A DNA stretch of 64,000 nucleotides from an uncultured Bacilli bacterium (GTDB taxonomy: Bacteria > Bacillota_I > Bacilli_A > RFN20 > CAG-449). Below the pieces are notes generated by a model, which saw only the letters and a list, made by a program, of their open reading frames with translations, was not told the origin of the DNA and searched no databases. The position numbers and the translations under genes were made by a program. The stretch is taken from positions 12,823 to 76,822 of the forward strand of contig CANQEO010000001.1 in assembly GCA_947595215.1 (NCBI GenBank). The letters are read 5' to 3'. Of this stretch, positions 24,659 through 59,310 are shown piece by piece. Positions within the stretch are counted from its first letter, which is position 1. The number at the start of each line of letters is the position of its first letter.

Positions 24659-24689
24659 AAATCTTTCCTTCCTTTCAAAGTTATTTAAA

Positions 24690-24851: not shown

Positions 24852-24873
24852 TTAACTAAAGGAGATGGAAGTT

Positions 24874-26283: not shown

Positions 26284-26300
26284 TATGTAGGTGTAAAATT

Positions 26301-27584: not shown

Positions 27585-27599
27585 TTTATCAAAAAAATT

Positions 27600-27637
27600 A
27601 ATCGCAGTTTAATTCGTTGAACTGCGATTTTTTATTA
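27600..27637 (+). terminator. Rho-independent terminator
   Basis: AATCGCAGTT-TAATTCGTTG-AACTGCGATT forms a perfect 10-bp stem followed by TTTTTATT. Confidence 0.8.
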
Positions 27638-27697
27638 AATTCTTTCTATAAGATACTAATAAAAAGTCAACTTGTTTTAAAATAAAACTTAAACTAT

Positions 27698-27730
27698 CTA
27701 AAAAGGATTAGATTAGCTAATCCTTTTTAA
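27698..27730 (-). terminator. Rho-independent terminator after lipoprotein A2
   Basis: AAGGATTAG (27703-27711) pairs with CTAATCCTT (27717-27725) in a 9-bp stem with a 5-nt loop. A U-run follows on the minus strand. Confidence 0.7.
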
Positions 27731-27755
27731 ATTTATTTACTTATTAACTGAAATG

Positions 27756-29639
27756 TTACACATTCAAATCAAAAACCATTTGAATTTCGTATTTATCATC
27801 CATGTAATCATAACTTCTGGTTTTAAAAGTAAGTTGAGTTTTATCAGCATTCAAAGTTGGATTACCAGTTATACTAAAGTATAATTCTCCTGAAGTATCA
27901 TATCCAATCCAATTAGTAAACGTTACTTTTTCTCCATTATAACTCCAGTTAAATGTAGCAGTTGAGTTAATACTCATATAAATGCTTGTATGGTCGATAC
28001 TTACTTGTTCAAGAGAACCTGTTTTATCATCATTTAAAGTCAATGTTGAAACAACTGTGAGATTATTTATAATAGCAGTATAAGTGAAAGTACCAATCAA
28101 GAAATCTTCATATATTTTTTCAATGATTGTAAGGTTCATGCTAGCAATTTTACTGGGATCTGAAGTTGCAGTTGCAGTAATTGTTGCAGTGCCCGGATTA
28201 ACACCAGTAACTTTTATGGATTTGTAATCTTCACTTATTTCGTATTCGATTACATTTGGGTCACTAACTTCGACAGTAAAAACTTTATTAGCGCCAGCAG
28301 GTGAACCATTAACTTGAATTATTAAAGATTCATCAACTTGGAAAGTCTTTTGGCTATCAGGAATAAAAACAAAGTTGAAAGAGGAAAGTGGTGGTTCAAC
28401 AACAGTAACTTCAACAATTTTCGTTATTAAACCAAACTTGTCACCAACGACAACATTCGCGATTCCTGAAGCTACCGCTTCGAATTTATCAGCATTATAT
28501 GCAGAAGTAGATTTTCTAATAACATCTTCATTATCGCTGCTTAACACTTTAAAAGATTTAGCATCCAAAGCCGTTGTCGGTAAATAACTTACAATATAAA
28601 CATCTAATGTATAACCTATTTCAGCTTTATTCTTATCACCATCATCCGGACGAAATGAATCATAAGTTGTTGAAACAAACACTTCCGATAATTCGCTAAT
28701 AAAATATGGAGAAACATCAAAGTTTAAACTTTCTTCTTCACCATACACAATGTTAGAAAGCTCTCTTCCAATCATCGAATTTGGATTTTGATCTGAATCG
28801 ATAATTTTATGAGATTCCGAATCAATATTGGTACTTTTCCATGAATAGTAATAATATGATCCGCTGACAAGATTATTTTCACTATCAAATTTATAAACTG
28901 TATGATATGTATTTGAACTAAGAGATGAAATTGAATCAAAGGAGAAAGTAAATCCTCCATTATCATCGCGAACAATCATCATTTGATCGTCTTTATCTGG
29001 CAGTGGATTTACACCTTCAATGATTGAATTTGAGGTAAATGTTTCTTTGGATTTTTCTATTAGCCATTTTAAGTTATAAGTAGAACTATTTTCAATTTTT
29101 GATTTGGCATCTTCCAATGTAATTTCTAAGTTTTTATCCGCAACATTTTCTACTAAGTTATATTTTTCAGCAGTTGTATTTGAATTTATATCATAATAAA
29201 AATTGGAATCGAAACCTTTATATATTAAATAGTCTTCATAATTCTTATTTGCATCTTTTGAAATCATAAATAAATCAGTATTTTCTTTAACTTCTTGTAT
29301 ACCCTGTTCTAAGGTTCCTTCATCAGCAAATTTAACATTTCCCCTTTTTTCAGTAGACGAAAAATCCTTAAACGATAATGAGGTAATACTCTTATCTAAT
29401 GAAGCATTTACTAAAGCAACAACTTCATCTAGTGTTTTGGGAAGTGGTGTTTCTTCTTCGGATGATTCTTCTTCACTGCTATCTTCAGAACTAACTTCAT
29501 TTGATGTATCATTTTCAGTTAGAGAATCAGAAGTTGGATTAGAATTAATATCTGACTGACTGCTTCCTTCATCGCCGGGATTACATGCCATTAATGATAA
29601 GGTAGTAAGAGATACTAGTAATAATTTTATTTTTTTCAT
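27756..29639 (-). CDS. large surface lipoprotein, paralog A2 (627 aa)
   Basis: The first 92 aa are identical to A1. The rest is a clearly related but much more divergent paralog, e.g. HTVYKFDSENNLVSGSYYYYSWKSTNIDSE versus HTVYKFDSENNLVSGSFYYNTWNSKNFDSD. Confidence 0.85.
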   Translation of the reverse strand: MKKIKLLLVSLTTLSLMACNPGDEGSSQSDINSNPTSDSLTENDTSNEVSSEDSSEEESSEEETPLPKTLDEVVALVNASLDKSITSLSFKDFSSTEKRGNVKFADEGTLEQGIQEVKENTDLFMISKDANKNYEDYLIYKGFDSNFYYDINSNTTAEKYNLVENVADKNLEITLEDAKSKIENSSTYNLKWLIEKSKETFTSNSIIEGVNPLPDKDDQMMIVRDDNGGFTFSFDSISSLSSNTYHTVYKFDSENNLVSGSYYYYSWKSTNIDSESHKIIDSDQNPNSMIGRELSNIVYGEEESLNFDVSPYFISELSEVFVSTTYDSFRPDDGDKNKAEIGYTLDVYIVSYLPTTALDAKSFKVLSSDNEDVIRKSTSAYNADKFEAVASGIANVVVGDKFGLITKIVEVTVVEPPLSSFNFVFIPDSQKTFQVDESLIIQVNGSPAGANKVFTVEVSDPNVIEYEISEDYKSIKVTGVNPGTATITATATSDPSKIASMNLTIIEKIYEDFLIGTFTYTAIINNLTVVSTLTLNDDKTGSLEQVSIDHTSIYMSINSTATFNWSYNGEKVTFTNWIGYDTSGELYFSITGNPTLNADKTQLTFKTRSYDYMDDKYEIQMVFDLNV

Positions 29640-31257
29640 AAATCTTTCCTTCCTTTCAAAGTTATTTAAAATTATATTGTGAGATATAAAAATATACAAC
29701 ATTTTTATTAAAAAATGAAAATAGCTGTGTAAAATTATCAGCTTTTTTGTAAATTAATTTCAAAATCTTTGCTAAATTCTTTTAAACATTATTTAAACTG
29801 CTTATAATGTGATAAACAATCATATTGTTTATTTAACTAAAGGAGATGGAAGTTATGAAAAAAAGAAAGCTATTATTAACTTTGACTACTGTCGTTTTAG
29901 TTGGTCTTGTCGGCTGTGATCAAGAAAATCCTTCAACAAGTAGTAGTGATAGTGAACACCCAACTGTCGATCAAAGTTTTGCTCAAGTTTTAGCTAACGC
30001 CAAAAAAAGTGTCAATATCGTTGGTGAATATATATCCGTTTATACAGATGATGGAGAAATTGATGAAGAAGGAAGTTACGATATTACTATCGCCTCTGAT
30101 TTCTATCAAACATCTCGTTACTATACGGGTTCTTACGGAAGAGAATATGATGAAAATTATACTTTTGTAAAAGGTGATGATGGAAAGATTTACGAACGTA
30201 CTCTTTCTCTTAAAAATACACCCACTGATGTGATTTATAAAAATAGTTTTAATGGCGAAGAATTAAATTATGATGAACTTTGCTTAAATCCCTTTGAATC
30301 ATTAGAAATCGATGATTTTTATGTTGATGAAAATGGACGCTATTCAGTAAATACAAACGCTGTCAACGCTTTTAAAGGAATTACTATCCTTGAAAGTATT
30401 CGTGATATTTACTTCTTCCCTGAATTACAAGTTGAAAGTGTTTCATTTGAATATAATAATGGTGTTTTATCCGATGGTATTATTTCTACTGTGCCACAAA
30501 AAGATCATACCGTATTTGAATGGAATTTCTATTATGAATTTACTTTCGAAATTGATTTCCCCGGTGAATTAGATATTCCTGAGGTTGAAACTCTCCCAAG
30601 CAATGAATCACATGAAATTTTAAAAACTGCATTAAATAAAATGCATGAAAAAATGTCTGGAAACAACTATACCATTCACGCTTACTATGGTGACGATGAA
30701 CTCGATTCAGAATATGACACTTACTATTATGGAGATGGGTGTTATAGCGAATTCCACCCTCTTCTTTACTCATATACCCAAGGGTATAAATTACATGCAG
30801 ATGGAAAATATTATCGCTATAGATATTATTTAGCCGATGATTCATTTGATCATAAAGCCGGAGAATTAATTTATGATGTTGATCTTGGAGGATACTATGT
30901 AGGTAGTAAATCCGTTATCAATAGTTTAGAAGAAATAGGTGCTGATTTTTCAATTTTTGCGCCAGAATTTTTCAAAAGCAATACAGCGAATACTCTCTTC
31001 ACTACAAGTAACAGAAAATATAGCGAAGCTATTTATAATGCTTTTACTCCATTTGTTGATAAATCAGATGGTGATTATGATGTTAGAAGTATCACAATCG
31101 AATTAGATAGCACTACGAAAGAAATCACTTCTATCAGCGGTGTCGCTTACGATAATTACGCAGAATATGAATATGAATTCACATATACCTATGGCTCTTT
31201 TGGATCAACTGTAAATCCTCTCGATGACCAAATTCGCGGTGGCGTACCTGATAAGAA
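29364..31257. repeat. 1894-bp direct repeat, copy 2
   Basis: See copy 1. Identity ends inside the last codons of the B gene: AAT TCA TAA in copy 1 versus AAC TCT TAA in copy 2. Both encode N-S-stop. Confidence 0.9.
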
Positions 31258-31264
31258 CTCTTAA
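29855..31264 (+). CDS. lipoprotein, family B copy 2 (469 aa, protein identical to copy 1)
   Basis: The ORF-track translation is identical to 24865-26283. Confidence 0.85.
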   Translation: MKKRKLLLTLTTVVLVGLVGCDQENPSTSSSDSEHPTVDQSFAQVLANAKKSVNIVGEYISVYTDDGEIDEEGSYDITIASDFYQTSRYYTGSYGREYDENYTFVKGDDGKIYERTLSLKNTPTDVIYKNSFNGEELNYDELCLNPFESLEIDDFYVDENGRYSVNTNAVNAFKGITILESIRDIYFFPELQVESVSFEYNNGVLSDGIISTVPQKDHTVFEWNFYYEFTFEIDFPGELDIPEVETLPSNESHEILKTALNKMHEKMSGNNYTIHAYYGDDELDSEYDTYYYGDGCYSEFHPLLYSYTQGYKLHADGKYYRYRYYLADDSFDHKAGELIYDVDLGGYYVGSKSVINSLEEIGADFSIFAPEFFKSNTANTLFTTSNRKYSEAIYNAFTPFVDKSDGDYDVRSITIELDSTTKEITSISGVAYDNYAEYEYEFTYTYGSFGSTVNPLDDQIRGGVPDKNS

Positions 31265-46280: not shown

Positions 46281-46327
46281 AAATTAAAAGTCAAACTTTT
46301 GCAAAATTGAATTTTGCTTAGTTTGAC
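46281..46327 (-). terminator. Rho-independent terminator of the ClpP/T4CP-like operon
   Basis: On the minus strand there is a compound hairpin: GUCAAAC-UAA-GCAAAAU-UCA-AUUUUGC-AAAA-GUUUGAC. It is followed by UUUUAAUUUAAU, 24 nt after the stop codon. Confidence 0.7.
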
Positions 46328-46350
46328 ATATAAGTTTTTCGATTTATCTA

Positions 46351-48054
46351 TTACCAGTCCTCATTGAATTTTGTTCTATATGACATTAGTTTAGAAATAT
46401 CATAATCGTATTTTGAGTCGTATGGATTAATCTTAGATTGATATTCAAATACATCATCTTTTTCGTAATTAGAAAACTCTTCACAACGATAAAACCTTTG
46501 TAATTTGCTTTTTAAAACATAGGGACAATTAGCTTCAGTAATAATGCATTCCCCTTCTTTTAAATATGCTAAATCGCTTTTGGGTATGAGCGGAATAGTT
46601 TCTATGCTGATATCAGTCAATTTTTCTCCTTGACCTTTTAAAGCACATATCGGAGATATGCGTGTATATTCGCCACATTCTCTTTTAAACGCTTCCAATG
46701 TTTCTGGATTATTACTACCTAAGAAAATATGAATATTAAGATTATCTCTAATAATAGTGGCTACATTTTTGCCATAAACATTATCTAATTGAGCATAAGA
46801 TTGAATTATCAAAATAAAGAAAATATTTCTTCCTCGACATGCTGATATCGTAGTGTCCAGATCAATTATAGGTGGAAAATTGCCAAATTCATCAAGAATA
46901 AAATAAAATGGTTTATCTAATTTTCCGGTTTTCAATCTACTTACATTTTCAATTAAAAAATTATATGCACTTTGAACAAAAAGACTAATCATTTGATAAT
47001 GTGTTTTAATCTCATCATGATAATCAATAAAGATAGCAACTTTATCTTCTAAAAGAACATTTAAATCGAATGAATTACAACTAGTGATAGTTTGAATCGT
47101 ACTATTCTTCATGACCGCTAACTTTGATTGGAAGGTAGTCATATAACTAGATCGAGTTCTTTCCGCACAATCAAAAGGTCCCCTTGAAAATAAATACGCT
47201 TTTGAATTGTGCGGTCTTCTAGAGAAGTATCCCCTATCGAAGTTTAATGGATTTTCATTCGAACCCATACCATCAAAACTAGCAAGAATCTTAAAAATTG
47301 TGCTGAACGAGAAAGTATCTTCAGTAATCCTCTCAAAAGAACTCTCATCAAGTTTTGAATCTTCAAGCATTGCCCATAAGAAAGATTTTAAGATATCTCT
47401 GGCACCCAAATCCCAAACCATATCATGCTTATCATCAATTGTGATAAGCATATTAGCCATGTGATCAATTTTATTACCAACCTCAGAAAGCATTAATTTT
47501 TTTTCAAATTGCGCATTTTTTTCTGCTTCTTTCAAAGTATCGTAAATCTTATCTTGAAAGCGATACTTGATACGTTGATTAATAGTTACTCTTTCAATTT
47601 CCTTAGTAACATCAAAAGCACGTTGATATTCTCGGTATATCGGAGTTAACGGATTCCAATATTCGCTGTGACGATGATCTCTAAAATTTAATAGATAAAC
47701 TTTATACCCTTCTTTACGCAGTTTTTTTGCAGTAATCCGATAGTTTTCTCCTTTAGGATCCGAAATAACCATGCTCTTTTTTATCGCTTGACTTGCAAAC
47801 GATAAAATGGTTGGAATGACATACGATGTGGTCTTTCCTAATCCAGTTGCCGAAATTACCGCAACATGGCAATCATTTTTTGAATATTTTTGCATAAGTT
47901 CTCCATTAATGGAAAAACTCGCTTTCAATACACCATTCATTTTGCATTTAGGAAGATCTTTAAAAGAGACTAACTCGTCTCTATCGAGTTCATTATATGA
48001 AACGAGTTTTTGATTTTCATGCCCTTTTATTAATTCACTGATTTCCTTATACAT
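46351..48054 (-). CDS. VirD4/TraG-like type IV coupling protein-family ATPase, soluble (no N-terminal TM segment), 567 aa
   Basis: Walker A context NDCHVAVISATGLGKTTSYVIPTIL; Walker B FYFILDEFGNFPPI; then IFFILIIQSYAQLDNVYGKNVATIIRDNLNIHIFLGSNNPETLEAFKRECG. These are the hallmark T4CP blocks. The start is set at the ATG at 48054 (GGAGG + 8 nt). It overlaps the upstream stop by 8 nt (ATGTATAA). There is no hydrophobic N-terminus. Confidence 0.8.
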   Translation of the reverse strand: MYKEISELIKGHENQKLVSYNELDRDELVSFKDLPKCKMNGVLKASFSINGELMQKYSKNDCHVAVISATGLGKTTSYVIPTILSFASQAIKKSMVISDPKGENYRITAKKLRKEGYKVYLLNFRDHRHSEYWNPLTPIYREYQRAFDVTKEIERVTINQRIKYRFQDKIYDTLKEAEKNAQFEKKLMLSEVGNKIDHMANMLITIDDKHDMVWDLGARDILKSFLWAMLEDSKLDESSFERITEDTFSFSTIFKILASFDGMGSNENPLNFDRGYFSRRPHNSKAYLFSRGPFDCAERTRSSYMTTFQSKLAVMKNSTIQTITSCNSFDLNVLLEDKVAIFIDYHDEIKTHYQMISLFVQSAYNFLIENVSRLKTGKLDKPFYFILDEFGNFPPIIDLDTTISACRGRNIFFILIIQSYAQLDNVYGKNVATIIRDNLNIHIFLGSNNPETLEAFKRECGEYTRISPICALKGQGEKLTDISIETIPLIPKSDLAYLKEGECIITEANCPYVLKSKLQRFYRCEEFSNYEKDDVFEYQSKINPYDSKYDYDISKLMSYRTKFNEDW

Positions 48055-49618
48055 TTTTGTAACCTCCAAATCCATAAATTGTATGATCCTCACGATATTG
48101 AGTTAACTCGCTAATCGTTATCACTTTATTACAATCAACTGAAGATAAAAGCGATGTTAATGTTTCAGAAGCATCTTTCAATGACAAAGCATAAAGATGC
48201 TCTAACGAATTTTTGTCAAATTCAACTTCAACGCCAAACTCTTCAGTTTTTGTTTTGATTAATTTCGATAATAAAATTTCCTTTTCGACATTTTCGATGT
48301 TTTTTAAGAAAATTGTTTGTAGTATTTTTAAGTGCTTAGCATTTTTGCTATCACACAAGAAGATAGGATAAACAGAACTTAAATCGATAGAGATTCCTAA
48401 TCCACTTAAAAAGAACGCTTTTCTTTCTTCGTTGTTAGCAAAACTTTTTATTGCATTGAGATAATTAGAGTTAACATCTCCATGAACAATAAAAACGTAA
48501 ATATTCGCTTTATCTTCCTCGCAACTACGAACAAGGATATTATGGCGACTTGATTCTAGATCGAACGGCTTCAATTGTGATACATCAATTTTTACAATAT
48601 TAGCATCTTTAAATCGCAAAGAAATATGATTATAATAGTCTTCTAACAAGAAAGCATCTTCATTAATAAGGCACAAAGCGTTATAGCAATTATTGTTAAA
48701 TTGCTTAGCAATTTTATTTATAATCTTATCTTGTTCATCCTTGCGCGATACCATCGATTGCCCTTGATAAACCAAAAGTTTAACTTTGTTTTTCATTAGG
48801 CATAATGGTAAGTCATTTGCAGCATCTAATACATCCTGATTTCCAAATACAATTTTGCGTTTATCCTTTTCATTGATTAATGTAGACATTAAAATACGTG
48901 CATATTTAGGTACATAAACATTAGGATTAAGTTGTTCGGATCCTATAAGTTTTTGCAATAAATATGTATTTTCGTGAAACTTGATATTTATGCCTCGATA
49001 AAAAGAATTTGCTCTTTCAAAAATATAATAGGTAGGTAAATTATTAAGAAGTGTATAAAGATGACTCAAATACTCATCGCGACTTTTTTTATTAAAGTAA
49101 AGACACATCAAAATGCTATCAACATCATTCCAATTAGCCGCTTTTTCTAGCGTTTTAAGCGATTTATCTTCATAAGTTTCAATAATCTTTAATGCTTGAA
49201 TTAATCCAAAAAGCCTTAATGAAATAATTTTATTTTTATAGGAACTTGAAACTAAAAAGTTAATCGCTTCAGATTGACTCGGTTTCAAGTTGACATTATA
49301 GCCTTCTTTGATTAATAATTTCATCGCTTGACCTTTAATTTTAATGATTTCTTCTTGTTTAGAATCAAAAGTATATTGACTACCATTAAGGTAAAATACT
49401 TCTTTAATTCTTTGATGGCGATCATAATCAATTTCAGTGGCGATATTATTAACCGCTTCAGACTTAACGATATCGTATAATTCGTCGCAAGTTTCATTTG
49501 ATAACATATACACATTCGCAAGTTCATTAAAGAGCGTTTTATTATTTTTTCCAGTCAAACACTCTACTTGGAAATAGCATCTGAGAAAATTTTCTTCCAA
49601 CATATTTAATAAATTCAT
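48047..49618 (-). CDS. 523-aa protein: unknown helical N-terminal half plus a degenerate Hsp100/Clp D2-like AAA+ module
   Basis: Start at the ATG at 49618 (GAGAGG RBS, 7 nt after the ClpP stop). The C-terminal half aligns by eye to Clp/Hsp100 D2. IVFGNQDVLDAAND resembles VIGQDEAI. LLVYQGQSMVSRKDE sits where GPTGVGKTE would be. NIYVFIVHGDVNSNYLNAIKSF sits where [23 protein letters not shown] would be. PIFLCDSKN sits at sensor-1 (IIMTSN). EEFGVEVEFDKNSLEHLYALS resembles the D2-small lid. It ends in TIYGFGGYKNV. Confidence 0.45.
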   Translation of the reverse strand: MNLLNMLEENFLRCYFQVECLTGKNNKTLFNELANVYMLSNETCDELYDIVKSEAVNNIATEIDYDRHQRIKEVFYLNGSQYTFDSKQEEIIKIKGQAMKLLIKEGYNVNLKPSQSEAINFLVSSSYKNKIISLRLFGLIQALKIIETYEDKSLKTLEKAANWNDVDSILMCLYFNKKSRDEYLSHLYTLLNNLPTYYIFERANSFYRGINIKFHENTYLLQKLIGSEQLNPNVYVPKYARILMSTLINEKDKRKIVFGNQDVLDAANDLPLCLMKNKVKLLVYQGQSMVSRKDEQDKIINKIAKQFNNNCYNALCLINEDAFLLEDYYNHISLRFKDANIVKIDVSQLKPFDLESSRHNILVRSCEEDKANIYVFIVHGDVNSNYLNAIKSFANNEERKAFFLSGLGISIDLSSVYPIFLCDSKNAKHLKILQTIFLKNIENVEKEILLSKLIKTKTEEFGVEVEFDKNSLEHLYALSLKDASETLTSLLSSVDCNKVITISELTQYREDHTIYGFGGYKNV

Positions 49619-49625
49619 AATTAAA

Positions 49626-50201
49626 TTACCTCTCTTTATCTTGTTTTTTAGATGGTATAACCATGTCAATGAGACCATATTGCAAAGCGGTATCAGCATC
49701 CATAATATTGTCTCTATCGGTATCACGTTGAATTGTTTCAATTGATTTACCAGTGTTTTGAGCCATTATTTGATTGAGCTTGTTTTTAATTTTTTGAATG
49801 TGCTCAGCGGCAATCATAATATCTGAAGCTTGACCACTCACACCACCTAAAGGTTGATGGATAAGAATCTCACAATTTTGAGTTGCTTTTCTCATTCCTT
49901 TAGTTCCCGAACAAAGTAAAAAAGCTGCCATTGAGGCTACCATTCCGATTCCAACAGTTGCAATCTTGGCTTGGATGAAATTCATGGTATCATAGATTGC
50001 TAATCCTTCATTGACACTGCCACCTGGACTATTGATTTGAATTGTAATGATTCTTTCATCCAGTGGCGCATTCTCAGTTTTAAATTTATTATCAAGATAG
50101 AGCAACTGACTGATAACTCTATATGATGTATCAACATCGATTGGTCCAAAAAGATTTATCGTGTTGTGATATAGTGAATAATTCATTGAGAACTCTTTCA
50201 T
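49626..50201 (-). CDS. ClpP-family serine protease paralog (191 aa, shortened N-terminus)
   Basis: INSPGGSVNEGLAIYDTMNFI; GMVASMAAFLL (catalytic Ser); ILIHQPLGG (His); RDTDRDNIMDADTALQYGLID (Asp). It is close to canonical ClpP over the core. It starts at MKEFSMNYSLYHNTINLFG, so the axial N-terminal loop region is missing. Strong RBS (AAAGGAGG + 6 nt). Confidence 0.88.
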   Translation of the reverse strand: MKEFSMNYSLYHNTINLFGPIDVDTSYRVISQLLYLDNKFKTENAPLDERIITIQINSPGGSVNEGLAIYDTMNFIQAKIATVGIGMVASMAAFLLCSGTKGMRKATQNCEILIHQPLGGVSGQASDIMIAAEHIQKIKNKLNQIMAQNTGKSIETIQRDTDRDNIMDADTALQYGLIDMVIPSKKQDKER

Positions 50202-50511
50202 AAATTCCTCCTTTACTATTTTGTAAGTGCCATAATTGACTTATCCCGCATGAAAGTATGATTTTCATTTCTTAAAGCAAAATGAAAAATAAAGAATCAG
50301 AATAAATAATATTTGAAATGATTATGAATATTTTACTAATTTTGGTCGCTATCCGTGAAAAACCTCATCGTGACAAAGGCACTATTGTTAGCGAAGGCAA
50401 AATATATAATTTTTGCGAATAATTTTTCGATAATTATCTCTATTTTCCGTACATAGACGCATTAAAACTATGTATAGTCAATTTCGACAATCTGTCTGGG
50501 ATAGCGGCTAA

Positions 50512-50799
50512 TTATATTTCTAGCAGATGCTCTCTTGGTGCTCCAAAGTAACCAACTATCAGTGCATTTTCATTTATACATTGGAGATGATAGGAAGTTC
50601 CCACAACAACCTTACTAGCGCTATTATCGCATTCATCCAGAGATAGTAATTGATCTTTTCCTACATCGATAGATGAAGTGCTTACTCCTAGGCAATTATT
50701 AACTATTATTTGATTATTATTTTTAGAGCATGCTAAACCATTGTTCATGTGAACAAAAATATTAACAGTTTTAACGTTAGTCATAGTTAATGTTTTCAT
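50512..50799 (-). CDS. hypothetical 95-aa protein (four Cys, no recognisable family)
   Basis: Strong RBS (AAGGAG + 6 nt + ATG) and a good promoter about 100 nt upstream. No signal peptide, TM segment or HTH was recognised. Confidence 0.5.
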   Translation of the reverse strand: MKTLTMTNVKTVNIFVHMNNGLACSKNNNQIIVNNCLGVSTSSIDVGKDQLLSLDECDNSASKVVVGTSYHLQCINENALIVGYFGAPREHLLEI

Positions 50800-50908
50800 A
50801 ACATGCTCCTTTCCAAGCCAAAGAAAAACTAAAGCAAAATTTTAATAAAGCGTGATTTTGATGTTTTGCTGAAGTCCTCTACTAACTGACCTCATTCGGC
50901 AAGATAGC

Positions 50909-50937
50909 ATTATGAACTTTAAATGCGATTAAGTCAA
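50909..50937 (-). promoter_or_regulatory. sigma-A-type promoter heading the 95-aa / ClpP-like / T4CP-like unit
   Basis: On the minus strand: TTGACT (50937-50932), a 17-nt spacer, then CATAAT (50914-50909). Confidence 0.6.
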
Positions 50938-51050
50938 TAATTTATTTCATTTTTTTACAATTCAAAGTTTCAAAAAACGCCTGATTTTAGGCATTTATAT
51001 TTTCAATATAAAAATTAGTCTTTCGACTTATTTTATTGTCAAAACTAAAA

Positions 51051-51059: not shown

Positions 51060-51084
51060 CGCATTGGTGGTGATTAAAATTAAA

Positions 51085-51927
51085 ATGAAAAAGTTTATAG
51101 TTTTTGTTCTCTCAACTTTATTGCTATTTGGAGCTTGTAATAATCAAAATGAAAATATCTCTTTTGAATCAAGTGTTCCAGATAGCAACGAACCTTCAAG
51201 TAGCGAAGAAAATAGTGACTCCTCTAACGATATTTCTGAAGAAACTTCATCGATAGCATCTTCCGAAACTCAAGAATCAAGTGAAGAAGTTATTACTTCA
51301 GCAAAAGAAAGATATGAAATATTCATGTCATACGAAGAAGAAGAAATCGGATATTTTATTGGAACCGCAATATCAATAGAACAATATCCTTATAATGCTA
51401 ATGCCAATGTGTTTTTTATGGATGGAATATATGGATATTACGCCATTAATCTTCCCGTATCTGAAACTCCAATTGAAATCGGCATGAAATATATGATTTG
51501 TGGCTTTGTCGATATCACTCCAGAACCAGAAAGTCTCCATCGACTTAACGCGAAGAACTTTAACGCTGATAGTATCTTTCGTTTAAGTGAAGAATATCTA
51601 GATTATTGCGATGAGCCTATAATTGAAAATATCACTGAAAATATCGAAGATATTTCCATAAATAAAACTCTCGCTTCTGTAGATGTTGATGGACTTACAA
51701 TTACCGACATATCGAAACTCGGTAATGGCGGTACTTCATTATTCACAGCTAAACTAAATGAAAATACCTACTATATATATTGCAATGGAAGTCTCATTGG
51801 TGGAAACGAAATGATTAATCGCATAAAACAATTGGGAGTTGGTACAAAAATTAATCTTCGCGGAGTAATAGTTATCACTGAATTTTCATTTAGAGCAATC
51901 AATCAAAATATGATTATTCCAGTTTAA
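51085..51927 (+). CDS. lipoprotein (280 aa)
   Basis: MKKFIVFVLSTLLLFGAC has a lipobox, followed by an S/E-rich linker. The ORF-track start at 51064 is a TTG read-through. Confidence 0.75.
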   Translation: MKKFIVFVLSTLLLFGACNNQNENISFESSVPDSNEPSSSEENSDSSNDISEETSSIASSETQESSEEVITSAKERYEIFMSYEEEEIGYFIGTAISIEQYPYNANANVFFMDGIYGYYAINLPVSETPIEIGMKYMICGFVDITPEPESLHRLNAKNFNADSIFRLSEEYLDYCDEPIIENITENIEDISINKTLASVDVDGLTITDISKLGNGGTSLFTAKLNENTYYIYCNGSLIGGNEMINRIKQLGVGTKINLRGVIVITEFSFRAINQNMIIPV

Positions 51928-51932
51928 AAATC

Positions 51933-51965
51933 AAAACCCTCTTAAAAGTTTAAGAGGGTTTTTAA
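51933..51965. terminator. bidirectional terminator overlapping the 3' end of the aldo/keto reductase gene
   Basis: AAAACCCTCTTAA (51933-51945) - AAGT - TTAAGAGGGTTTT (51950-51962) forms a perfect 13-bp stem. Confidence 0.75.
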
Positions 51966-52751
51966 ATCTTCATCTTTTATTTTGAAATCAACTTTAGTAT
52001 TATCGATTATATACTTTTCATGTACTGATTTTGGCACTGAAACGGTTCCTAATTCCAAAGTAAATCTAATGCATAATTGAGGAACACTAACTCCATATTT
52101 ACGTGCCATCTCTTTTAAAAGCGGATTATCTAACAAGCGTCCGGTTCCTAATGGCGAATATGCCATGATAATAATACCGGTTTTATTGCAATATGATATA
52201 ATATCCTTTTGTAACCATCCAACATGAAGTCCAATTTGATTAACTACTGGTTTTATCGCAGCGTTATTGCTGATATTCTCCATATCAACAACATCGAAGT
52301 TTGAAACGCCAAGAGAACGAATTTTACCATCATTATAAGCTTCTTCCATTGCTTTCCAAACTTCAAGATTCTCTTTTAGATAACGTTTTTCTCCTTGAAA
52401 CATCTCGCTCCATGGTTTGGGTGCATGTATCAACATTAAATCAATATAATCAAGGTCTAATTTGCGAAGAGACTCCGCAATTGATTTTTTCGCACCATCA
52501 TACGTCTTCACTTCAGCCGGAATTTTTGTGGTGACAAAGATTTTCTCGCGTGGAATACCACTATTTTTGATGCCTTCACCGACTCCTTCTTCATTACCAT
52601 AGGCTGCGGCGGTATCTATATGGCGATAACCATTTTTTAGTGCTATAAATGTAGCGTTTTTCGCATCTTCTATACTAGATTGCCATGTACCCAAAGAAAG
52701 TTTTGGTATTTTATAACCATTTTTAAGTGTGTAAAATTCATCTAAAATCAT
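51942..52751 (-). CDS. aldo/keto reductase (2,5-diketo-D-gluconate reductase-like)
   Basis: 269 aa. LGTWQS...GYRHIDTAAAYGNEEGVG...LIHAP...GVSNF are AKR signature blocks. Confidence 0.9.
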   Translation of the reverse strand: MILDEFYTLKNGYKIPKLSLGTWQSSIEDAKNATFIALKNGYRHIDTAAAYGNEEGVGEGIKNSGIPREKIFVTTKIPAEVKTYDGAKKSIAESLRKLDLDYIDLMLIHAPKPWSEMFQGEKRYLKENLEVWKAMEEAYNDGKIRSLGVSNFDVVDMENISNNAAIKPVVNQIGLHVGWLQKDIISYCNKTGIIIMAYSPLGTGRLLDNPLLKEMARKYGVSVPQLCIRFTLELGTVSVPKSVHEKYIIDNTKVDFKIKDEDLKTLLNF

Positions 52752-52762
52752 ATCAAACTCCT

Positions 52763-55084
52763 TTATTTCATTTCCGGTATTTTCGCAAAGCTTGGTATTT
52801 CTGTAGTTCCGATATCTTGAAATATTGCACTAGCAAAAACTGAATATGTTTCATGTCTAACATTATCACTATCATATTCGATTTCAATTTCATCCAAAAC
52901 AGAAACAATTAAATTTTCATCTTTGATTTCTAAAATAACACCACAGAAACCCAAGTAACTGCTTCCTCCTAATTGCATTGCTTCGACAAATATATCGTAA
53001 ATTTCCTCATCAAGAGAAAGATATTTATCATCTTCATATGTTGCAATAGTTTCAATCATGCTAGCTTCAAAGCGATTAAAAGCATTAAAATCAGATACTT
53101 TCTCTAAAGATAGTGAAGGATGAGATGAAACTGTAAATGTCGAAGTTTCCGTTTCTTCATCAACTAACCAACCGAAATTATAGACATATTTAGACTTACT
53201 TGAGGTGATAAAACCATCTTCATAAGTACCAAAATATATCGTATCTTCAGTATAGTAATCATAATCAGTTTCATCAAAATAAATTCCATATTCAGGATCA
53301 TCTTGATAAGCGATGGTAAAATTATCTAAATCTTTCATTTTATTAATAATCTCTTTTAATTCACGATTTTCATAAGTCGGAAATGATGGCTCATCATGAG
53401 AAGATTTGTAATTATCAATTAAATTTAAAGAAGTCTCATTAATTTTCTCCAGATGTCCTGAGGTATTCGTATATCCTAAAGAATTAATAATCTCAAACTC
53501 TAAAGTTCCATCATCTTTTATGGTGACATACGCTTGCAATTGATTATATGGATTACTTCCTAAAATTAAAGACAATATTTTCATATATCGAGATGAATTC
53601 GTTACAAAACGATTATCACCTAATGGTTGAAAGTAATGAAAATCTAAGGCTTTAAAGGAATATGTTGCATCGTATTCTTCTCTTAATAACGTTTTATTTC
53701 TTGTAGGAGTTATCTCACCTTGATCAATTACGTAATTGTAAGCATAATCTTCATAAACAATATAATCGGTCGATGGGAAATTATTATAATAATCTTTATA
53801 TTCTTTACGACCACCTTCAGTTGAAATGATTCCACGAAATTCAGTTTCATCTTCTTCTAAATTTTTAACATAGGTAAAATTGGTATCTAAATCTTTAACG
53901 GCCTCAATTAATGTTTCATTTTCATAATACGTTAATGTCGGTTTAATAGTCCCATTAAGATAATCATTCAATGCAGGTAAGCCAGTTGTTCCAATATTAA
54001 ATATTTTTCCTTCGTAAACCGAACTATGATTTCTCATCAAAGAAATAAAGGCACTCCTAGTTGCAGGATCAACTTCAATTTGCACCATGTTGATTCCATC
54101 ACCTTCAACAATTAATAAATCACAAATATTTTGAACATTATAATAATCTGAAGAAACATAAGTGTTAGTAGCAACTTCCTTAAATTTAGAAAAATCGTGG
54201 CGCTTAAAAGGATAGTTTTTTTCTATAAAATCTGTACTTTCAACAATTTCAAAATCAACTGTAGCAACATTTTCTACAATATCATAATAATGAACTCCAT
54301 CTTCTAATGCGATAATTCCACTACTCGATACAATATTGCTTCCATCACCTTCAAAAGTACCTACGTAATCTTTTGTTAGCAATGTCGTTATCCCACGTTT
54401 AGTAGTAAGATTTTGTCCGATGAAGGTAAAGTTATCATTAAGAGATCCTAATACCTCTAATAAGGGATCATTTTTAAAAGTTTCGAGTTCCGGATCGATT
54501 CTAGAATCTAGATAATCAGAAACCGGTTTATAGGAAGTTTCGTTAATTCCATATATAGTTCCACTCATCACTACCCGATTATAATCATCGAAGAATCGGA
54601 AATTAAGCAGTCCATTATCCATAAATAAATCTGCCGCAACATAAGGTTTCGAGTTAGTTAAAAACGATAAAGCCTCCATAGCGATAGGATCATTTGTATG
54701 GTAAGTATCATCTTTTTCTTCTAAAACACTTGTATCGATGTCAAATGGCACATAATGAGAATCAAAATCAGCTTTAGTACCGCTATAAGGAACATGTGGA
54801 ATTACAATATCATTATGGATAGTATAAACATACATAGTTCCATCATAAAGTACAAATTGCCCCCCACCCAATTCTTCATCATAGATATAATCTTGATTTC
54901 GATAAATATGATAACGTCCATTTGAGGTAATATAATTTATTGTATAATTATCTCTAATTGATTCTAAAGTTTCGATTACTTTTGATGAAGTAGTCGATGA
55001 AATAGAATTATCTCCATTATCACTTGGATTGCAAGAAACTAATAGGGCGAGTGATATTATTAATAAAAAACCATTCTTTTTCAT
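52763..55084 (-). CDS. large lipoprotein built of four family-B-like modules (773 aa)
   Basis: MKKNGFLLIISLALLVSC has a lipobox. The helix + N-Y/F-T motif recurs about every 185 aa: LESIRDNYTINYI, LGSLNDNFTFIGQ, VKDLDTNFTYVKN, MKDLDNFTIAYQD. Confidence 0.8.
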   Translation of the reverse strand: MKKNGFLLIISLALLVSCNPSDNGDNSISSTTSSKVIETLESIRDNYTINYITSNGRYHIYRNQDYIYDEELGGGQFVLYDGTMYVYTIHNDIVIPHVPYSGTKADFDSHYVPFDIDTSVLEEKDDTYHTNDPIAMEALSFLTNSKPYVAADLFMDNGLLNFRFFDDYNRVVMSGTIYGINETSYKPVSDYLDSRIDPELETFKNDPLLEVLGSLNDNFTFIGQNLTTKRGITTLLTKDYVGTFEGDGSNIVSSSGIIALEDGVHYYDIVENVATVDFEIVESTDFIEKNYPFKRHDFSKFKEVATNTYVSSDYYNVQNICDLLIVEGDGINMVQIEVDPATRSAFISLMRNHSSVYEGKIFNIGTTGLPALNDYLNGTIKPTLTYYENETLIEAVKDLDTNFTYVKNLEEDETEFRGIISTEGGRKEYKDYYNNFPSTDYIVYEDYAYNYVIDQGEITPTRNKTLLREEYDATYSFKALDFHYFQPLGDNRFVTNSSRYMKILSLILGSNPYNQLQAYVTIKDDGTLEFEIINSLGYTNTSGHLEKINETSLNLIDNYKSSHDEPSFPTYENRELKEIINKMKDLDNFTIAYQDDPEYGIYFDETDYDYYTEDTIYFGTYEDGFITSSKSKYVYNFGWLVDEETETSTFTVSSHPSLSLEKVSDFNAFNRFEASMIETIATYEDDKYLSLDEEIYDIFVEAMQLGGSSYLGFCGVILEIKDENLIVSVLDEIEIEYDSDNVRHETYSVFASAIFQDIGTTEIPSFAKIPEMK

Positions 55085-55085
55085 A

Positions 55086-56420
55086 TTAAGCCTCCAAAAC
55101 TTCTACTTCGACGAAGAAAATTACTTCCGGTGAGAATATCATTTGACATTTAATATATGCAATACCACTACTCATAGCAACATAACCGATATTATCACTA
55201 TCTTCCATAATAACTACTTGATCAGGCGGATTTTGAATGCCGACAATGTTAAAATTCTTAGTATCTAACGATTTTTCTCCTTCATATTCCACCAAAGAAA
55301 TATAATCAGTTCTTATACGATCTCCAACATGAACATCGCCTTCGTAATTTGCAACAGTTACCGAAGTCACAAAATATTCACTCGGATTGAAATCAATATC
55401 AGACGAATTGTATTTTTCTCCACGTATCGCTTTAAAAGCATAACTTTCAGTTTTTGATACGACTGGATTCTCTACGAACGATTTAGAGGAAACATCATAT
55501 TGATTTTCATCATAATATGTCTTTTTTAAAGAACCTTCTTTAAAAAAACCATCATTATTAAATTTTAATTCCGCTTCATATAAACGAGAATCATTGCTTA
55601 CCTCATCAGCCCAAACAAAGAGATAAATATTTTTTAAATTTAAAGTAAATCCGTCATCATCTTTTTCGCCATTAATTTCAAGAGTTAAAGTTCTCGCTTC
55701 CCACATGGAAACTAATTCATTATAGAAACTAGAAATATATGAAGGACTATCTCCTCTTTTTTCAGCTTCACTGCGCAAAATATCATACGTAGAGGGATTG
55801 GCATCAACTAATTTTCTTTTAATTCCATAACCAGTCACATCACTATCAATTACTTGATAATAATAATCACCACTAATACCATCAAACTTTGTAGAATGTT
55901 CTTCATGTTTTCCTGAATAGTTTTCATATTTTTCTTCTAGTGTTTCAAGATAGAAATGATCTTTATACATTTTAGCGGAACGTTTTAAATCTTGTTTGAT
56001 ATTCGATGCTTTAGTTTCTAAATAAAACTCATTTGCATCACCTTCTAAATTAAGGGCTTGATTAAATAATTGAGTTAATTCTAATTGATTATGGGGAATA
56101 GCCATCTCATCTTTAACTTCTACTTTTAATGATGCAGTTAAAGTTGAATTTATAACAGTTGCGGTGATTTCTACTTCTCCGACTTTATATGCTATAGCTT
56201 CTCCACGCGAATTAATAGATAACACTAATTCATCGCTACTTTCAAAATTTACTTCCATTTCAGAAGAAACTTCATATTTAGCTATTTGACCAACATTTAA
56301 AGTTTCAGGACCGATAATGTTAAATTCACTTATCGAAGTATTTTCTGATCCAATATTTTGGTTATTGTTACAACTTCCTAATAATAAAACTATACTAAAT
56401 AGTACACATAATTTTTTCAT
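55086..56420 (-). CDS. lipoprotein with Big_2-like domains (444 aa)
   Basis: MKKLCVLFSIVLLLGSC has a lipobox. There is an N-terminal Ig-like segment (FNIIGPETLNVGQIAKYEV...GEVEITATV). Confidence 0.8.
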   Translation of the reverse strand: MKKLCVLFSIVLLLGSCNNNQNIGSENTSISEFNIIGPETLNVGQIAKYEVSSEMEVNFESSDELVLSINSRGEAIAYKVGEVEITATVINSTLTASLKVEVKDEMAIPHNQLELTQLFNQALNLEGDANEFYLETKASNIKQDLKRSAKMYKDHFYLETLEEKYENYSGKHEEHSTKFDGISGDYYYQVIDSDVTGYGIKRKLVDANPSTYDILRSEAEKRGDSPSYISSFYNELVSMWEARTLTLEINGEKDDDGFTLNLKNIYLFVWADEVSNDSRLYEAELKFNNDGFFKEGSLKKTYYDENQYDVSSKSFVENPVVSKTESYAFKAIRGEKYNSSDIDFNPSEYFVTSVTVANYEGDVHVGDRIRTDYISLVEYEGEKSLDTKNFNIVGIQNPPDQVVIMEDSDNIGYVAMSSGIAYIKCQMIFSPEVIFFVEVEVLEA

Positions 56421-56431
56421 AATAACCCTCC

Positions 56432-59170
56432 TTAATGAGATAACTGAATCGAAATTGTCACATATTCATCTAAATCGTATATTCTTAAATTAATACTATT
56501 ACCATCATCCAAAATACTAGATCCTGACGCTCCTTTAAAATCATACCATTTATCAGGTTGTACCATTGTTTGAACGTTGGTAAATGAAATAGTTAAATCG
56601 TCATTCAGATTCCAATTAAACGAATAAACTCCACCACCTTGTAATGATAAACTTCCGGTGCCATCTTCATTAAATATTATTGTGTGGTTACCATCAGAAT
56701 ATGGAGCGCTACACATATTTTCAATAGTAGAATCAAGATTAGGTTTCTCTTTGATGGTAATAGTTTTTGTACTCCTAATAGAAGGATTAGCATTTGCGGT
56801 AGCGATTAAAGTCGCACTACCGGCACTTATCGCAGTAACAAGATATTTTCCATCACCTTGATCTTCTAAAGTGACAAATTTCTCACTTCCTTCTTGTAAA
56901 GAAATAGTATAAGAAGAATCGTCTACTTCACTAGGTAGCACAGAAGCACTAACAATGTAATTATCACCCACCATTAAGAAATTAGGAATGTAGTCAAAGT
57001 TAATCGCTTTGACAGTTGGTGCAACCACTTCTAATTCTATATTCTTGGAAACACCTGTATCGGAAGTGATAGTAATTGTAGTGGTACCAATGTCCTTACC
57101 TAATACATAAAGAAGTGAGTCAAACGAAGAATCGGTGACCACTTCATCGTTTTCAATTGATATAGTATACACGGCATCTAAATGTCTTGATGGTTTTTCA
57201 TCAATAATATTGATTGCTTTGCTTTCACCTCTATCAATTACTAACTTATCTCCTTTTTTATTAAAATTACTTACATCAATATCGAAGTCACTTACTTTAT
57301 ATGAATCAATATTTATTCTTTGAGAATCGGTAGGTAATCTTGTTCCATATGTAAGAGAAGCGTTAATTGTTTCGCCTGTCGAAGGAACTGCCCCTTCTTT
57401 AAGACAATTATTTATTTGGTCGTAAGCGTCTTGGTCATATTTATTCACATTAGAGTTAAATAATATAATTTCTCCTTCTAAATTAAAGATGATTTTCATA
57501 TTTACACTCATAAAGGATTTATTATCATCCCATGACCAATTTTTATAGGCGCATGCTCCAGAAATTGATATGACCTTTTGATTATCTTTATTTGTTATAA
57601 TAACACGAATATTTTGGAGAATTTCTTCTTTATTAAAAGAGGAAGAATCTTGCAAAATCTCTTTAATCTTTTTAGAAACACCATAGGTATTATCAATATT
57701 TGGAAGTTGCACCATTTGATTAGCTTCTTCTTGAGTTACACTATAATAATCTTCGCCAATTGAATATTCGTTAAGCGATACACCATTATTATAAAAACTA
57801 TCTGAAACTTTATCTTCAAATACAAATACTGAATTATTATCTTTATAAGTAAGTGAAGTAGTAACACCACTATAATTTTCTACATTCATTTGAATAGCAT
57901 CGCTATAATTGCGCCATTCATAGGTATCTTCAAAATATGTAGTATCACTTTTATATTGGCCACCGCTTGAATTTAACTGTTCTAATAATAAAGCTTCATC
58001 TAATAAATCGTAAATTTCACTATATGTAGCGCTTTTTAAAACTGTTACATTGATAGTTTTTGAGATATTAGAGTTATTAGTAGTAAAAGTCAAACTACCC
58101 TCTCCATCTTTTAAGGCCGTTATTTTTTTATATTCAACTTTAAAAATATCCGGTGTAAAAGTAGTAATCGAATATGATTTATCACTAGCATTTTCCGGAT
58201 AAATTGTCACTTCATATTTTATTTCATCACCGGGAATAATCTCATTTGATAATAAATTGATATTGATATCGGTAACATCAATATTATTAGCTATAATTTC
58301 CAAAGCGATGCTATCTTCTTTTTCACCATCTTCAGAAAGAACATTAATTATGACATTTTCTCCTTCTGGTGTTTCTTTTAAGCCGGTTATTAAACCTTTT
58401 TGATTGACAATTGCATATTCGTTATTGCTAGAAGAATAACTCAAATTCATATTGTCTGCATTTTTTGGTAATACTTCAACATTCAGTTGCAAAGAAGAGC
58501 CCACAACTAAAGAAGTTTCTTCATTTAAAATAGTTACACTTGAAACATGAACTACACGTTTAGTTATTGTTAGTTCAAAAAAATCATTTACTTTTTGATC
58601 ACGAGAAGTAACGCCGATAGTTGTAGTACCCGGAATTAAAGCGCGTATCACACCCTCATCATTTACACTTGCGATAGATGGCACTGATGATGTGAATGTC
58701 AATTTCTTATCAGTAGCGTTATCCGGTGTAATTAAACATTCCAAGGTATATTCTTCATCTTGAGCCAAACTTTGTATCTTATTTGTGATAGTTAAAGATT
58801 CTATCTCAATAATTTTATCTTTTACTGTAATAACAAGTTGATCACTTAAGTTATATTCTTGTTCCTCAACTTTTAAAGTGGTAGTACCAGCCTTCAAAGC
58901 GTGAACATGGCCATCATTGCTAACAGAAGCAACTTCTTCATTTGATGATGTGAATGTTACTACATAATCATCGCAAGAAGGAGTTATTGCATAAGTTAAA
59001 TTCATCTCTTCACCAATATCTAATACTTCTTTAGGTGCATATAGTATTATGCTTTTAGAATCATCACTAGCATCAAATGACGAGTCCGTAGTTGACCCGT
59101 TAAGAGTACCTTGATTAGCACAACCACATAAAGTTAAAAGCAATATTACTAATAATATTCTTTTTTTCAT
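56432..59170 (-). CDS. large lipoprotein with at least five tandem Big_2-like domains (912 aa)
   Basis: Start at 59170 (MKKRILLVILLLTLCGC; AAAGGTGAG RBS). It has repeated units of about 85 aa, of the form ...TFTSS..SIASV..DG.I.AL.PGTTTI.V. It ends in the shared C-terminal module. Confidence 0.85.
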   Translation of the reverse strand: MKKRILLVILLLTLCGCANQGTLNGSTTDSSFDASDDSKSIILYAPKEVLDIGEEMNLTYAITPSCDDYVVTFTSSNEEVASVSNDGHVHALKAGTTTLKVEEQEYNLSDQLVITVKDKIIEIESLTITNKIQSLAQDEEYTLECLITPDNATDKKLTFTSSVPSIASVNDEGVIRALIPGTTTIGVTSRDQKVNDFFELTITKRVVHVSSVTILNEETSLVVGSSLQLNVEVLPKNADNMNLSYSSSNNEYAIVNQKGLITGLKETPEGENVIINVLSEDGEKEDSIALEIIANNIDVTDININLLSNEIIPGDEIKYEVTIYPENASDKSYSITTFTPDIFKVEYKKITALKDGEGSLTFTTNNSNISKTINVTVLKSATYSEIYDLLDEALLLEQLNSSGGQYKSDTTYFEDTYEWRNYSDAIQMNVENYSGVTTSLTYKDNNSVFVFEDKVSDSFYNNGVSLNEYSIGEDYYSVTQEEANQMVQLPNIDNTYGVSKKIKEILQDSSSFNKEEILQNIRVIITNKDNQKVISISGACAYKNWSWDDNKSFMSVNMKIIFNLEGEIILFNSNVNKYDQDAYDQINNCLKEGAVPSTGETINASLTYGTRLPTDSQRINIDSYKVSDFDIDVSNFNKKGDKLVIDRGESKAINIIDEKPSRHLDAVYTISIENDEVVTDSSFDSLLYVLGKDIGTTTITITSDTGVSKNIELEVVAPTVKAINFDYIPNFLMVGDNYIVSASVLPSEVDDSSYTISLQEGSEKFVTLEDQGDGKYLVTAISAGSATLIATANANPSIRSTKTITIKEKPNLDSTIENMCSAPYSDGNHTIIFNEDGTGSLSLQGGGVYSFNWNLNDDLTISFTNVQTMVQPDKWYDFKGASGSSILDDGNSINLRIYDLDEYVTISIQLSH

Positions 59171-59310
59171 AGTCTCACCTTTCTTTAATATCCTAGATAT
59201 TAGAATAAATAATATCATAAATAAATATTTATATATACAAAAAAAGAAAAACGCCTAAAATTAGGAGATATTTAGATGCTTTTAAAGGATTTTAATCAAA
59301 ATTAATAAAG

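Follow-up and report, generated by a model that had tools for sequence, protein, structure and literature searches.

A conserved ClpP, pseudo-AAA+ and VirD4-type ATPase operon of uncultured gut Firmicutes, a candidate composite ClpP machine

To our knowledge, every ClpP and Lon protease known so far is driven by an AAA+ unfoldase, and all characterised VirD4-type ATPases, the type IV coupling proteins (T4CPs), act at secretion or conjugation channels. Here we describe an operon in which a ClpP and a VirD4-type ATPase are encoded together, on either side of a third gene. It lies in a 64,000-nucleotide (nt) stretch of DNA, hereafter the window, from an uncultured Bacilli bacterium (assembly GCA_947595215.1, contig CANQEO010000001.1, positions 12,823 to 76,822), at window positions 46281-50937. 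A first-pass annotation, made from the sequence alone, had singled out this combination as a candidate undescribed system, and a full-text literature search indeed returned no description of a coupling-protein/ClpP module. The reading that we favour, at what we would call even chances, is that the operon encodes a composite ClpP machine, in which a pseudo-AAA+ adaptor would dock onto ClpP and a VirD4-type motor would act on substrates that are probably DNA-associated.

The listing of open reading frames (ORFs) gives four on the minus strand of 46281-50937, encoding in order proteins of 95 amino acids (aa), 191 aa (ClpP), 523 aa and 567 aa, with the order, positions and spacings first reported for them. 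The ATG of the 523-aa gene comes 7 nt past the ClpP stop codon, and the 523-aa and 567-aa genes share an 8-nt overlap, ATGTATAA. The features on which the argument turns are the following.

49626-50201, minus strand: ClpP paralogue, 191 aa (Pfam CLP_protease, 3.5e-61)
48047-49618, minus strand: Lon-like pseudo-AAA+ scaffold 'MID' (middle protein), 523 aa, proposed from AlphaFold2, Foldseek and the family profile
48062-48076, minus strand: YGFGG tail motif, aa 515-519 of the 523-aa protein, containing a candidate ClpP-docking tripeptide (conservation, covariation)
46351-48054, minus strand: VirD4/TraG-type (T4CP-like) ATPase, 567 aa, soluble by its sequence (Pfam matches, motifs)

Relatives of the operon were collected with the ATPase alignment as query against one genome per GTDB species, and the loci of 80 of the 160 relatives were fetched; six further loci, which an exact look-up of three homologues had already given, were added, and the ORFs of all related loci were called anew and searched with hidden Markov models (HMMs). 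The relatives' loci are all from gut metagenome-assembled genomes (MAGs), labelled Clostridia, Christensenellales, Anaeroplasma, Mollicutes, Erysipelotrichales, Coproplasma and similar. Of the 83 loci with an ATPase match, 81 have a gene of the 523-aa type directly upstream of the ATPase gene, usually sharing a few bases with it, and in 47 loci, from different lineages, a ClpP gene stands directly upstream of the middle gene in turn. Among the loci with readable upstream DNA ClpP is absent in 29; four further loci end at a contig edge, and one, L040, has a different partner. Since ClpP is present in only part of the loci, the conserved core is the middle protein together with the ATPase, with ClpP as a frequent third member. 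Translational coupling links the three genes, whose order holds across many gut Firmicutes. The tight coupling claimed in the first-pass annotation is borne out, and so is the recurrence of the neighbourhood in other genomes, which it had set as a test; ClpP, however, is an optional member. An exact look-up of the S10 protein, whose operon abuts the window locus, was used to look for presence/absence polymorphism and found only contigs that carry the module. ClpP content is patchy over the tree, and single MAGs occur with two copies of the pair on different contigs (L012 with L065, and L024 with L035); in the L012/L065 MAG the dedicated ClpP accompanies only one of the two copies.

The 191-aa protein was correctly named a ClpP, and its catalytic triad S90/H115/D164 is intact; the triad (S97/H122/D171 in the numbering of the alignment reference) is kept in 47 of 47 module ClpPs. 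It scores 176 bits against solved cellular ClpPs and falls below the cutoff of all eight NCBIfam ClpP models (193.2 vs a cutoff of 308.6 for TIGR00493, and 208.8 vs 249 for PRK00277). The N-terminal axial loop of ClpP (..P.VIEQT.RGER) is needed for gating and for the binding of ClpX and ClpA. In the window protein and the aligned module ClpPs the N-terminus reads KEEFSWxYSLxRNTINIFG and a loop of about 13 residues is missing; alignment to solved ClpPs begins at query residue 12-14 vs chain residue 27-29. The second surface is the cleft that receives the LGF-type loop of the unfoldase, which we take to be formed in E. coli ClpP by Y60, Y62, F82, I90, M92, F112, L114 and L189. When the 47 module ClpPs were aligned to the E. 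coli and B. subtilis proteins, four of the eight cleft residues proved to be replaced across the subfamily: Y60->T, Y62->Q and L114->T in 39-46 of the 47, and F112->R/A/S/K in 42. The window ClpP also has a 7-residue insertion, KFKTENA, beside the docking cleft/apical surface, and many of the 47 carry a 7-residue insertion there. By sequence, then, this is a distinct and specialised ClpP subfamily with an intact catalytic triad, and the fact that both surfaces used by canonical unfoldases are changed argues for a ClpP dedicated to this module and against a housekeeping one on which ClpX or ClpC would act.

The 523-aa protein has no match in Pfam (AAA_2, ClpB_D2-small and Lon_C included), NCBIfam or PADLOC. 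Its family was found by exhaustive HMMER search, which gave 249 cluster representatives at E<=1e-3, nearly all of 510-560 aa; a word-indexed search, with the single sequence or with a 63-sequence profile, returned the protein itself only. AlphaFold2 reached a predicted local distance difference test score (pLDDT) of 33 on the single sequence, and the model used here is the monomer built on a 135-sequence alignment, with a pLDDT of 94.3 and a predicted template modelling score (pTM) of 0.89. It consists of a helical N-terminal half with Sel1-like repeats (about aa 1-290), an AAA+ alpha/beta domain with lid (about aa 310-510) and a disordered C-terminal tail. The top 38 Foldseek matches of this model in the PDB are all LonA or LONP1 (E = 7e-8 to 1e-5), with FleQ/NtrC1, ClpB and Skd3 ranking behind Lon (ClpB at rank 42, E = 5e-5), and in the viral library it matches Lon proteins of giant viruses. 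The family profile likewise matches Sel1-repeat proteins over positions ~113-195 (5e-9) and the AAA+ region of Lon over positions 396-503 (~6e-4). Walker A (G....GK[ST]) occurs in 0 of the 135 aligned family members, the P-loop position reading CLINEDAF in the window protein and PLCxxSDSxY in the family consensus; the window protein has no Walker B DE, and it stops 13 residues beyond the lid domain, without a Lon-type protease domain. As modelled, the protein is a Lon-derived pseudo-AAA+ module that lacks nucleotide-binding motifs. The first-pass annotation had seen in it a dead Hsp100 D2-like module, of which the ATPase-dead AAA+ part holds and the Hsp100 D2 part gives way to Lon as the closest match.

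What follows the lid is a short tail (aa 511-523; the final two 10-residue blocks average pLDDT 54 and 43), in which G516 is invariant and F517 nearly so. A GF pair lies within the last 25 residues in 134 of the 135 family members, and hGFG in 115 of them; the ClpP-docking loop of E. coli ClpX, checked against PDB sequences, is GSGIGFGATVK. The codons GGA TTT GGA GGT, which encode GFGG in the window, double as the GGAGG ribosome-binding site of the ATPase gene. We considered whether GFGG might be conserved merely as the Shine-Dalgarno sequence of the next gene and rejected this, because the motif lies 0-12 residues from the stop codon, varying by locus, and because it is kept in the ClpP-less clade of L003, L004, L007 and L010, where the next gene begins ~100-250 nt downstream.

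The residue before GF differs with the presence of ClpP. In the ClpP-adjacent loci it is Y in 38/47 and F in 6/47, whereas in the ClpP-less loci it is L, I or M in 21/29 and Y in 1/29 (Fisher p = 7e-12). The 11 phylogenetically independent ClpP+/ClpP- pairs that were taken from a neighbour-joining tree of the ATPase comprise nine concordant, no discordant and two tied pairs (sign test p = 0.002). The simplest reading of this covariation is that the tail of the 523-aa protein contacts ClpP, with YGF going together with the remodelled cleft and [LI]GF with a canonical ClpP that would be encoded elsewhere. The docking of a dead AAA+ scaffold onto ClpP, at first proposed as a working idea, thus gains support from a ClpX-like hGFG tail and from its covariation with ClpP adjacency.

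The 567-aa protein matches the Pfam families T4SS-DNA_transf (3.4e-49), TraG-D_C (6.5e-24) and TrwB_AAD_bind (3.7e-16), and its Walker A (TGLGKTT, aa 70-76, nt 47827-47847) and Walker B (YFILDE, aa 384-389, nt 46888-46905) are both present; G73, K74, T75, T76, D388 and E389 are invariant in an alignment of 30 family sequences, whose mean column identity is 66%. Read from the sequence, no hydrophobic segment that could serve as a membrane anchor occurs in the first 70 residues. The family members are all ~560 aa with a common start point, and at least 658 homologues, all of that length, are 50-56% identical to it. These features fit the initial call of a soluble T4CP-like ATPase, with Walker A and B intact. 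Its distance from the conjugative proteins is considerable: it scores 236.8 bits against NCBIfam conju_CD1115, below the cutoff of 250, and far below the cutoffs of the VirD4, TraG and TraD models. Among plasmid-borne coupling proteins its closest matches (CD1115 family, Spiroplasma plasmids) reach only 26-31% identity, no match of the ATPase clade in the plasmid collection exceeding 31%. IMG/VR holds five distant relatives, 23-26% identical over most of the length or 37% over a 131-residue fragment, and the viral contig collection all but lacks the module. The C-terminal tail of the window ATPase is basic, then acidic/aromatic (...KFNEDW). Across the window (46351-46425) and the related loci, the ATPase C-termini have a basic stretch followed in most by FDF, FDFDF, DDDDLF, LF or WF, with NEDW in the window. 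Such a tail may be a partner-docking element; it recalls the C-terminal tail of TraD, which binds TraM, and we take this as a lead only.

From these parts a mechanism can be put together. With the axial loop missing and the docking cleft remodelled, the module ClpP would not be served by ClpX, ClpA or ClpC. Instead, the hGFG tail of the 523-aa protein would plug into ClpP in the manner of the ClpX IGF loop, as the covariation suggests, and the protein would act as scaffold or adaptor. The VirD4-like ATPase would then be the only possible energy source of the machine, a hexameric motor giving the ATP-driven engagement of substrates that a dead AAA+ ring cannot provide. Its substrates are probably DNA-associated proteins, because coupling proteins, from which the ATPase descends, handle relaxase-DNA adducts, and because a gene with an FtsK-gamma domain frequently lies directly downstream of it in other genomes. 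The machine could serve in the removal of DNA-bound proteins, in the exclusion of incoming DNA or as a regulated proteolytic switch. Of all this, the coupling of the genes, the states of the motifs, the folds, the covariation and the statistics of the neighbourhoods are shown, whereas every contact between the proteins, the part of the ATPase as motor, the kind of substrate and the biological role are what we infer. In its most specific form, which is possible but against which we would sooner bet, the operon would encode the first ClpP with a non-AAA+ power stroke, delivered to a dedicated ClpP barrel by a VirD4-type hexamer of the FtsK/HerA superfamily through a YGF-docked, Lon-derived pseudo-AAA+ ring, and extracting and destroying proteins bound or covalently attached to DNA, such as relaxase-DNA adducts and DNA-protein crosslinks.

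Several observations weigh against the composite machine. ClpP is missing from ~40% of the loci and so is not essential to the core pair, and the window locus itself is without the FtsK-gamma gene. The dedicated ClpP has lost four hydrophobic residues of the docking cleft, so that a canonical IGF-type insertion of the tail is not guaranteed; the eight cleft positions are taken from background on E. coli ClpP, the alignment itself being a tool result.

The surroundings of the operon bear on what it may do. The window is ordinary chromosome, carrying UvrA, a phospholipase D-family protein, an Fe-hydrogenase, the S10/spc ribosomal operons and many lipoproteins. The genes called up to 10 kb away on each side, and the ten other large window ORFs scanned, include no ClpX, ClpC or ClpA and no relaxase, VirB4, integrase, portal or capsid gene, in keeping with the initial description of a unit without conjugation, phage or Clp-unfoldase partners. 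In the related loci, too, a relaxase, VirB4 or other genes of a type IV secretion system (T4SS) were found neither among the nearest neighbours that were sampled nor in the tested families of recurrent neighbours, and recurrent phage genes were likewise absent there; the concern raised at the outset, that the unit might be the edge of an integrative conjugative element (ICE) or prophage, is thus answered. When one upstream and one downstream gene per locus were taken, FtsK_gamma was the commonest Pfam family (24/150, mostly directly downstream), followed by HTH_3 (10/150) and DUF1292 (7/150), and a full FtsK/SpoIIIE motor was seen in 4/150. The gene directly downstream of the ATPase often encodes FtsK-gamma-like winged helices at both the N- and the C-terminus, joined by a long poly-acidic linker (e.g. 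L017, 7040-8407), and in L021 (9713-12262), for one, the FtsK/SpoIIIE motor that it encodes is soluble and complete. Farther out, the recurrent neighbours are FtsH, ABC-F, MatE, TPK and BspA-type leucine-rich repeat (LRR) proteins; several loci lie near dnaA or dnaA-dnaN, and one neighbour carries a TIR_2 domain.

PADLOC (PADLOC-DB v2) gives no match for the ClpP, for the middle protein or for the 95-aa ORF, and no known anti-phage system was recognised; the ATPase matches mad8 (8.8e-14) and DinG (0.0028). The mad8 match is generic, because neighbouring FtsK ATPases match mad8 better, at 2.2e-28; the PADLOC matches among the neighbours in related loci are FtsK cross-matches and singletons. The context is not a defence-island pattern, and the suggestion that the trio might sit in such islands is not upheld by neighbours that are FtsK-gamma, HTH, DUF1292 and housekeeping genes. 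In L040 (2538-10611) a variant arrangement is seen, in which the ATPase follows a 1280-aa TIR / STAND (NPHP3_N) / TPR / APH-kinase protein and a 454-aa protein, and precedes a gene of the FtsK-gamma family; this hints at a use of the ATPase in a conflict system. The 454-aa partner was considered as a homologue of the middle protein and rejected (hhalign probability 0.2%). L006 carries terminase and portal genes of phage type at 15423-17698, 5-8 kb downstream of its trio, an arrangement seen in no other locus.

Three other explanations have to be set beside the composite machine. One, put forward in the first-pass annotation, would make the module an anti-mobile-element system, whose ATPase recognises an incoming relaxase-DNA complex or phage nucleoprotein and passes it to ClpP for destruction, a role that does not conflict with the composite-protease mechanism. 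The native recognition of relaxase translocation signals by coupling proteins, the two copies of the pair in some MAGs, the patchy ClpP content, the TIR_2 neighbour and the position of the L040 ATPase behind a TIR-STAND-kinase protein can all be cited in its favour. We nevertheless think it unlikely: PADLOC recognises neither ClpP nor the middle protein and offers a generic mad8 match for the ATPase, the neighbours are mostly housekeeping (dnaA/dnaN, the S10 operon, FtsH, ABC-F, MatE), a mean column identity of 66% is unusually high for a defence gene, and the clade is absent from plasmid and phage collections. It can also be argued that the middle protein and the ATPase are the core of a system working on DNA with FtsK-gamma proteins, in segregation, repair or uptake, with ClpP no more than an accessory regulator turning over the complex or a partner, the GF tail having some other role. 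That the pair stands without an adjacent ClpP in 29 readable loci, that FtsK-gamma genes are its commonest neighbours and full FtsK/SpoIIIE motors occur among them, and that several loci lie near dnaA would all be expected from it. Yet the ClpP-less loci keep the GF tail in its canonical [LI]GF form, which is easier to reconcile with the use of a ClpP from elsewhere than with the lack of one, the dedicated ClpP is remodelled subfamily-wide at exactly the partner-binding surfaces, and the coupling of the ClpP and middle genes is tight; this explanation, too, appears to us improbable.

The most conservative account, that a housekeeping clpP happens to lie beside two unrelated genes or that the locus is a decayed ICE or prophage remnant, we strongly disfavour and regard as very improbable. 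A divergent orthologue could score as the module ClpP does against solved cellular ClpPs, the ATPase does come from a conjugation family, and L006 has its terminase and portal genes not far off. Against these stand the identical three-gene order in the 47 loci of different lineages, a ClpP below all NCBIfam ClpP cutoffs with subfamily-specific features, the lack of T4SS, relaxase and integrase genes in the scanned parts of the window or among recurrent neighbours, motifs that are all intact and strongly conserved, and matches to PHROGs prohead proteases that are weaker than the CLP_protease match. An operon of this kind suggests that a compartmental protease can be connected to another class of motor, and that coupling proteins were exapted to work in the cytoplasm. 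Its restriction to little-studied gut lineages, for the most part uncultured (MAGs labelled Christensenellales, Anaeroplasma, Mollicutes and Erysipelotrichales), would account for its having been overlooked.

The remaining features of the locus flank the three genes.

50909-50937, minus strand: promoter-like TTGACT-17-CATAAT upstream of the 95-aa ORF (10/12 consensus matches)
50512-50799, minus strand: 95-aa Cys-containing ORF with a strong ribosome-binding site, species-specific
50202-50511, minus strand: spacer of 310 nt between the 95-aa ORF and ClpP
46281-46327, minus strand: intrinsic terminator, a nested hairpin at 46290-46327 followed by a U-tract at 46281-46289

The closing terminator described at first stands. 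The hairpin at 46290-46327, followed by UUUUAAUUU, folds at -14.8 kcal/mol with z = -2.98 vs shuffles, 2 of 200 shuffles folding equally well; a consensus scan missed it because there are few G-C pairs in its stem. The promoter assigned upstream of the 95-aa ORF fares less well: the TTGACT-17-CATAAT site is present, but promoter-like sites occur in the region at chance frequency (33 found vs 32.2 expected from shuffled sequence), so that it is no evidence on its own. Homologues of the 95-aa ORF are limited to L001 and L002, which are the same organism; it has no credible Pfam match and does not resemble the small genes that stand upstream in related loci. Its membership in the operon, as originally drawn, was therefore dropped, homologues being confined to one species and absent from related loci. 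The 310-nt spacer has no Rfam match, as has the whole window, and no unusual structure (folding z = -0.11). Taken together, a species-only ORF and a spacer without Rfam match or structure mean that the conserved unit is one of three genes and not four. The spacer holds several weak promoter-like sites, again at chance frequency, and it probably contains the operon's own promoter.

Some further observations concern other parts of the window. A GC-rich hairpin, GCCTAAAATCAGGC, followed by a T-run, lies at 50979-50992 on the minus strand, between a divergent lipoprotein gene and the 95-aa ORF and upstream of both, where no transcript obviously needs termination. A tandem duplication of ~5 kb, at 22790-31264, takes in a pair of divergent lipoprotein genes; its 472-aa lipoproteins (24865-26283 and 29846-31264) are 100% identical, and those of 643 and 648 aa (22790-24721 and 27756-29702) are 53% identical overall with their first 113 residues identical. 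Either a variable cassette of surface lipoproteins or an artefact of the assembly could account for it. The region 51064-59218 encodes large proteins of 287, 773 and 444 aa with lipoprotein- or signal-like N-termini and no Pfam domains, together with a 928-aa ORF, its product called at 912 aa, with Big_2 domains. The large surface-type proteins and the GC content of 30% suggest a reduced-genome gut Firmicute with an elaborate surface.

How the module stands to the systems described so far can now be set out. With ClpXP, ClpAP and ClpCP it shares a Ser-His-Asp peptidase of the ClpP family, a partner with an HCLR-clade AAA+ fold and a flexible [hydrophobic]-G-F motif like the IGF loop of ClpX, and genes that are adjacent and co-transcribed. 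It differs from them in that the AAA+ partner is without Walker A or B in 135/135, in that its ClpP is without the axial loop and with half of its eight cleft residues replaced, and in that its only active-type ATPase would, from its sequence, be a RecA-fold protein of VirD4 type and not an AAA+ unfoldase. LonA is the best structural match to the 523-aa protein, having the same helical N-terminal region, AAA+ alpha/beta domain and lid; the 523-aa protein, however, has a short GF tail in place of the C-terminal Ser-Lys protease domain, is without ATP-binding motifs and carries Sel1-like repeats in its N-terminal half. Hsp100 proteins are further off, as the 523-aa protein has no match to AAA_2 or ClpB_D2-small and ClpB falls structurally behind Lon.

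The type IV coupling proteins (VirD4, TrwB, TraD and TraG, and CD1115 of Firmicutes) have in common with the module ATPase the three Pfam domains, the all-alpha domain among them, the intact Walker motifs and a tail with an acidic/aromatic end that recalls the one of TraD. Unlike them the module ATPase is without a transmembrane anchor and without nearby relaxase, VirB4 or T4SS genes; it reaches at most 31% identity to those of plasmids, lies below the NCBIfam cutoffs and is paired with a pseudo-AAA+ protein. The ClpP-like prohead proteases of phages share the ClpP fold, and the module ClpP matches PHROG head-maturation protease families, but at scores below that of CLP_protease, and the module operon has no capsid, portal or terminase gene. 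The MADS anti-phage system is an eight-gene operon (bioRxiv 10.1101/2023.03.30.534895); a weak mad8 match of the module ATPase is what the two have in common, the other seven MADS genes being absent from the module. By the traits that define them, the module falls outside the conjugative coupling proteins, the canonical ClpP systems, Lon and every PADLOC system. Judged from its sequences, it appears new at the level of the system and is built from known folds.

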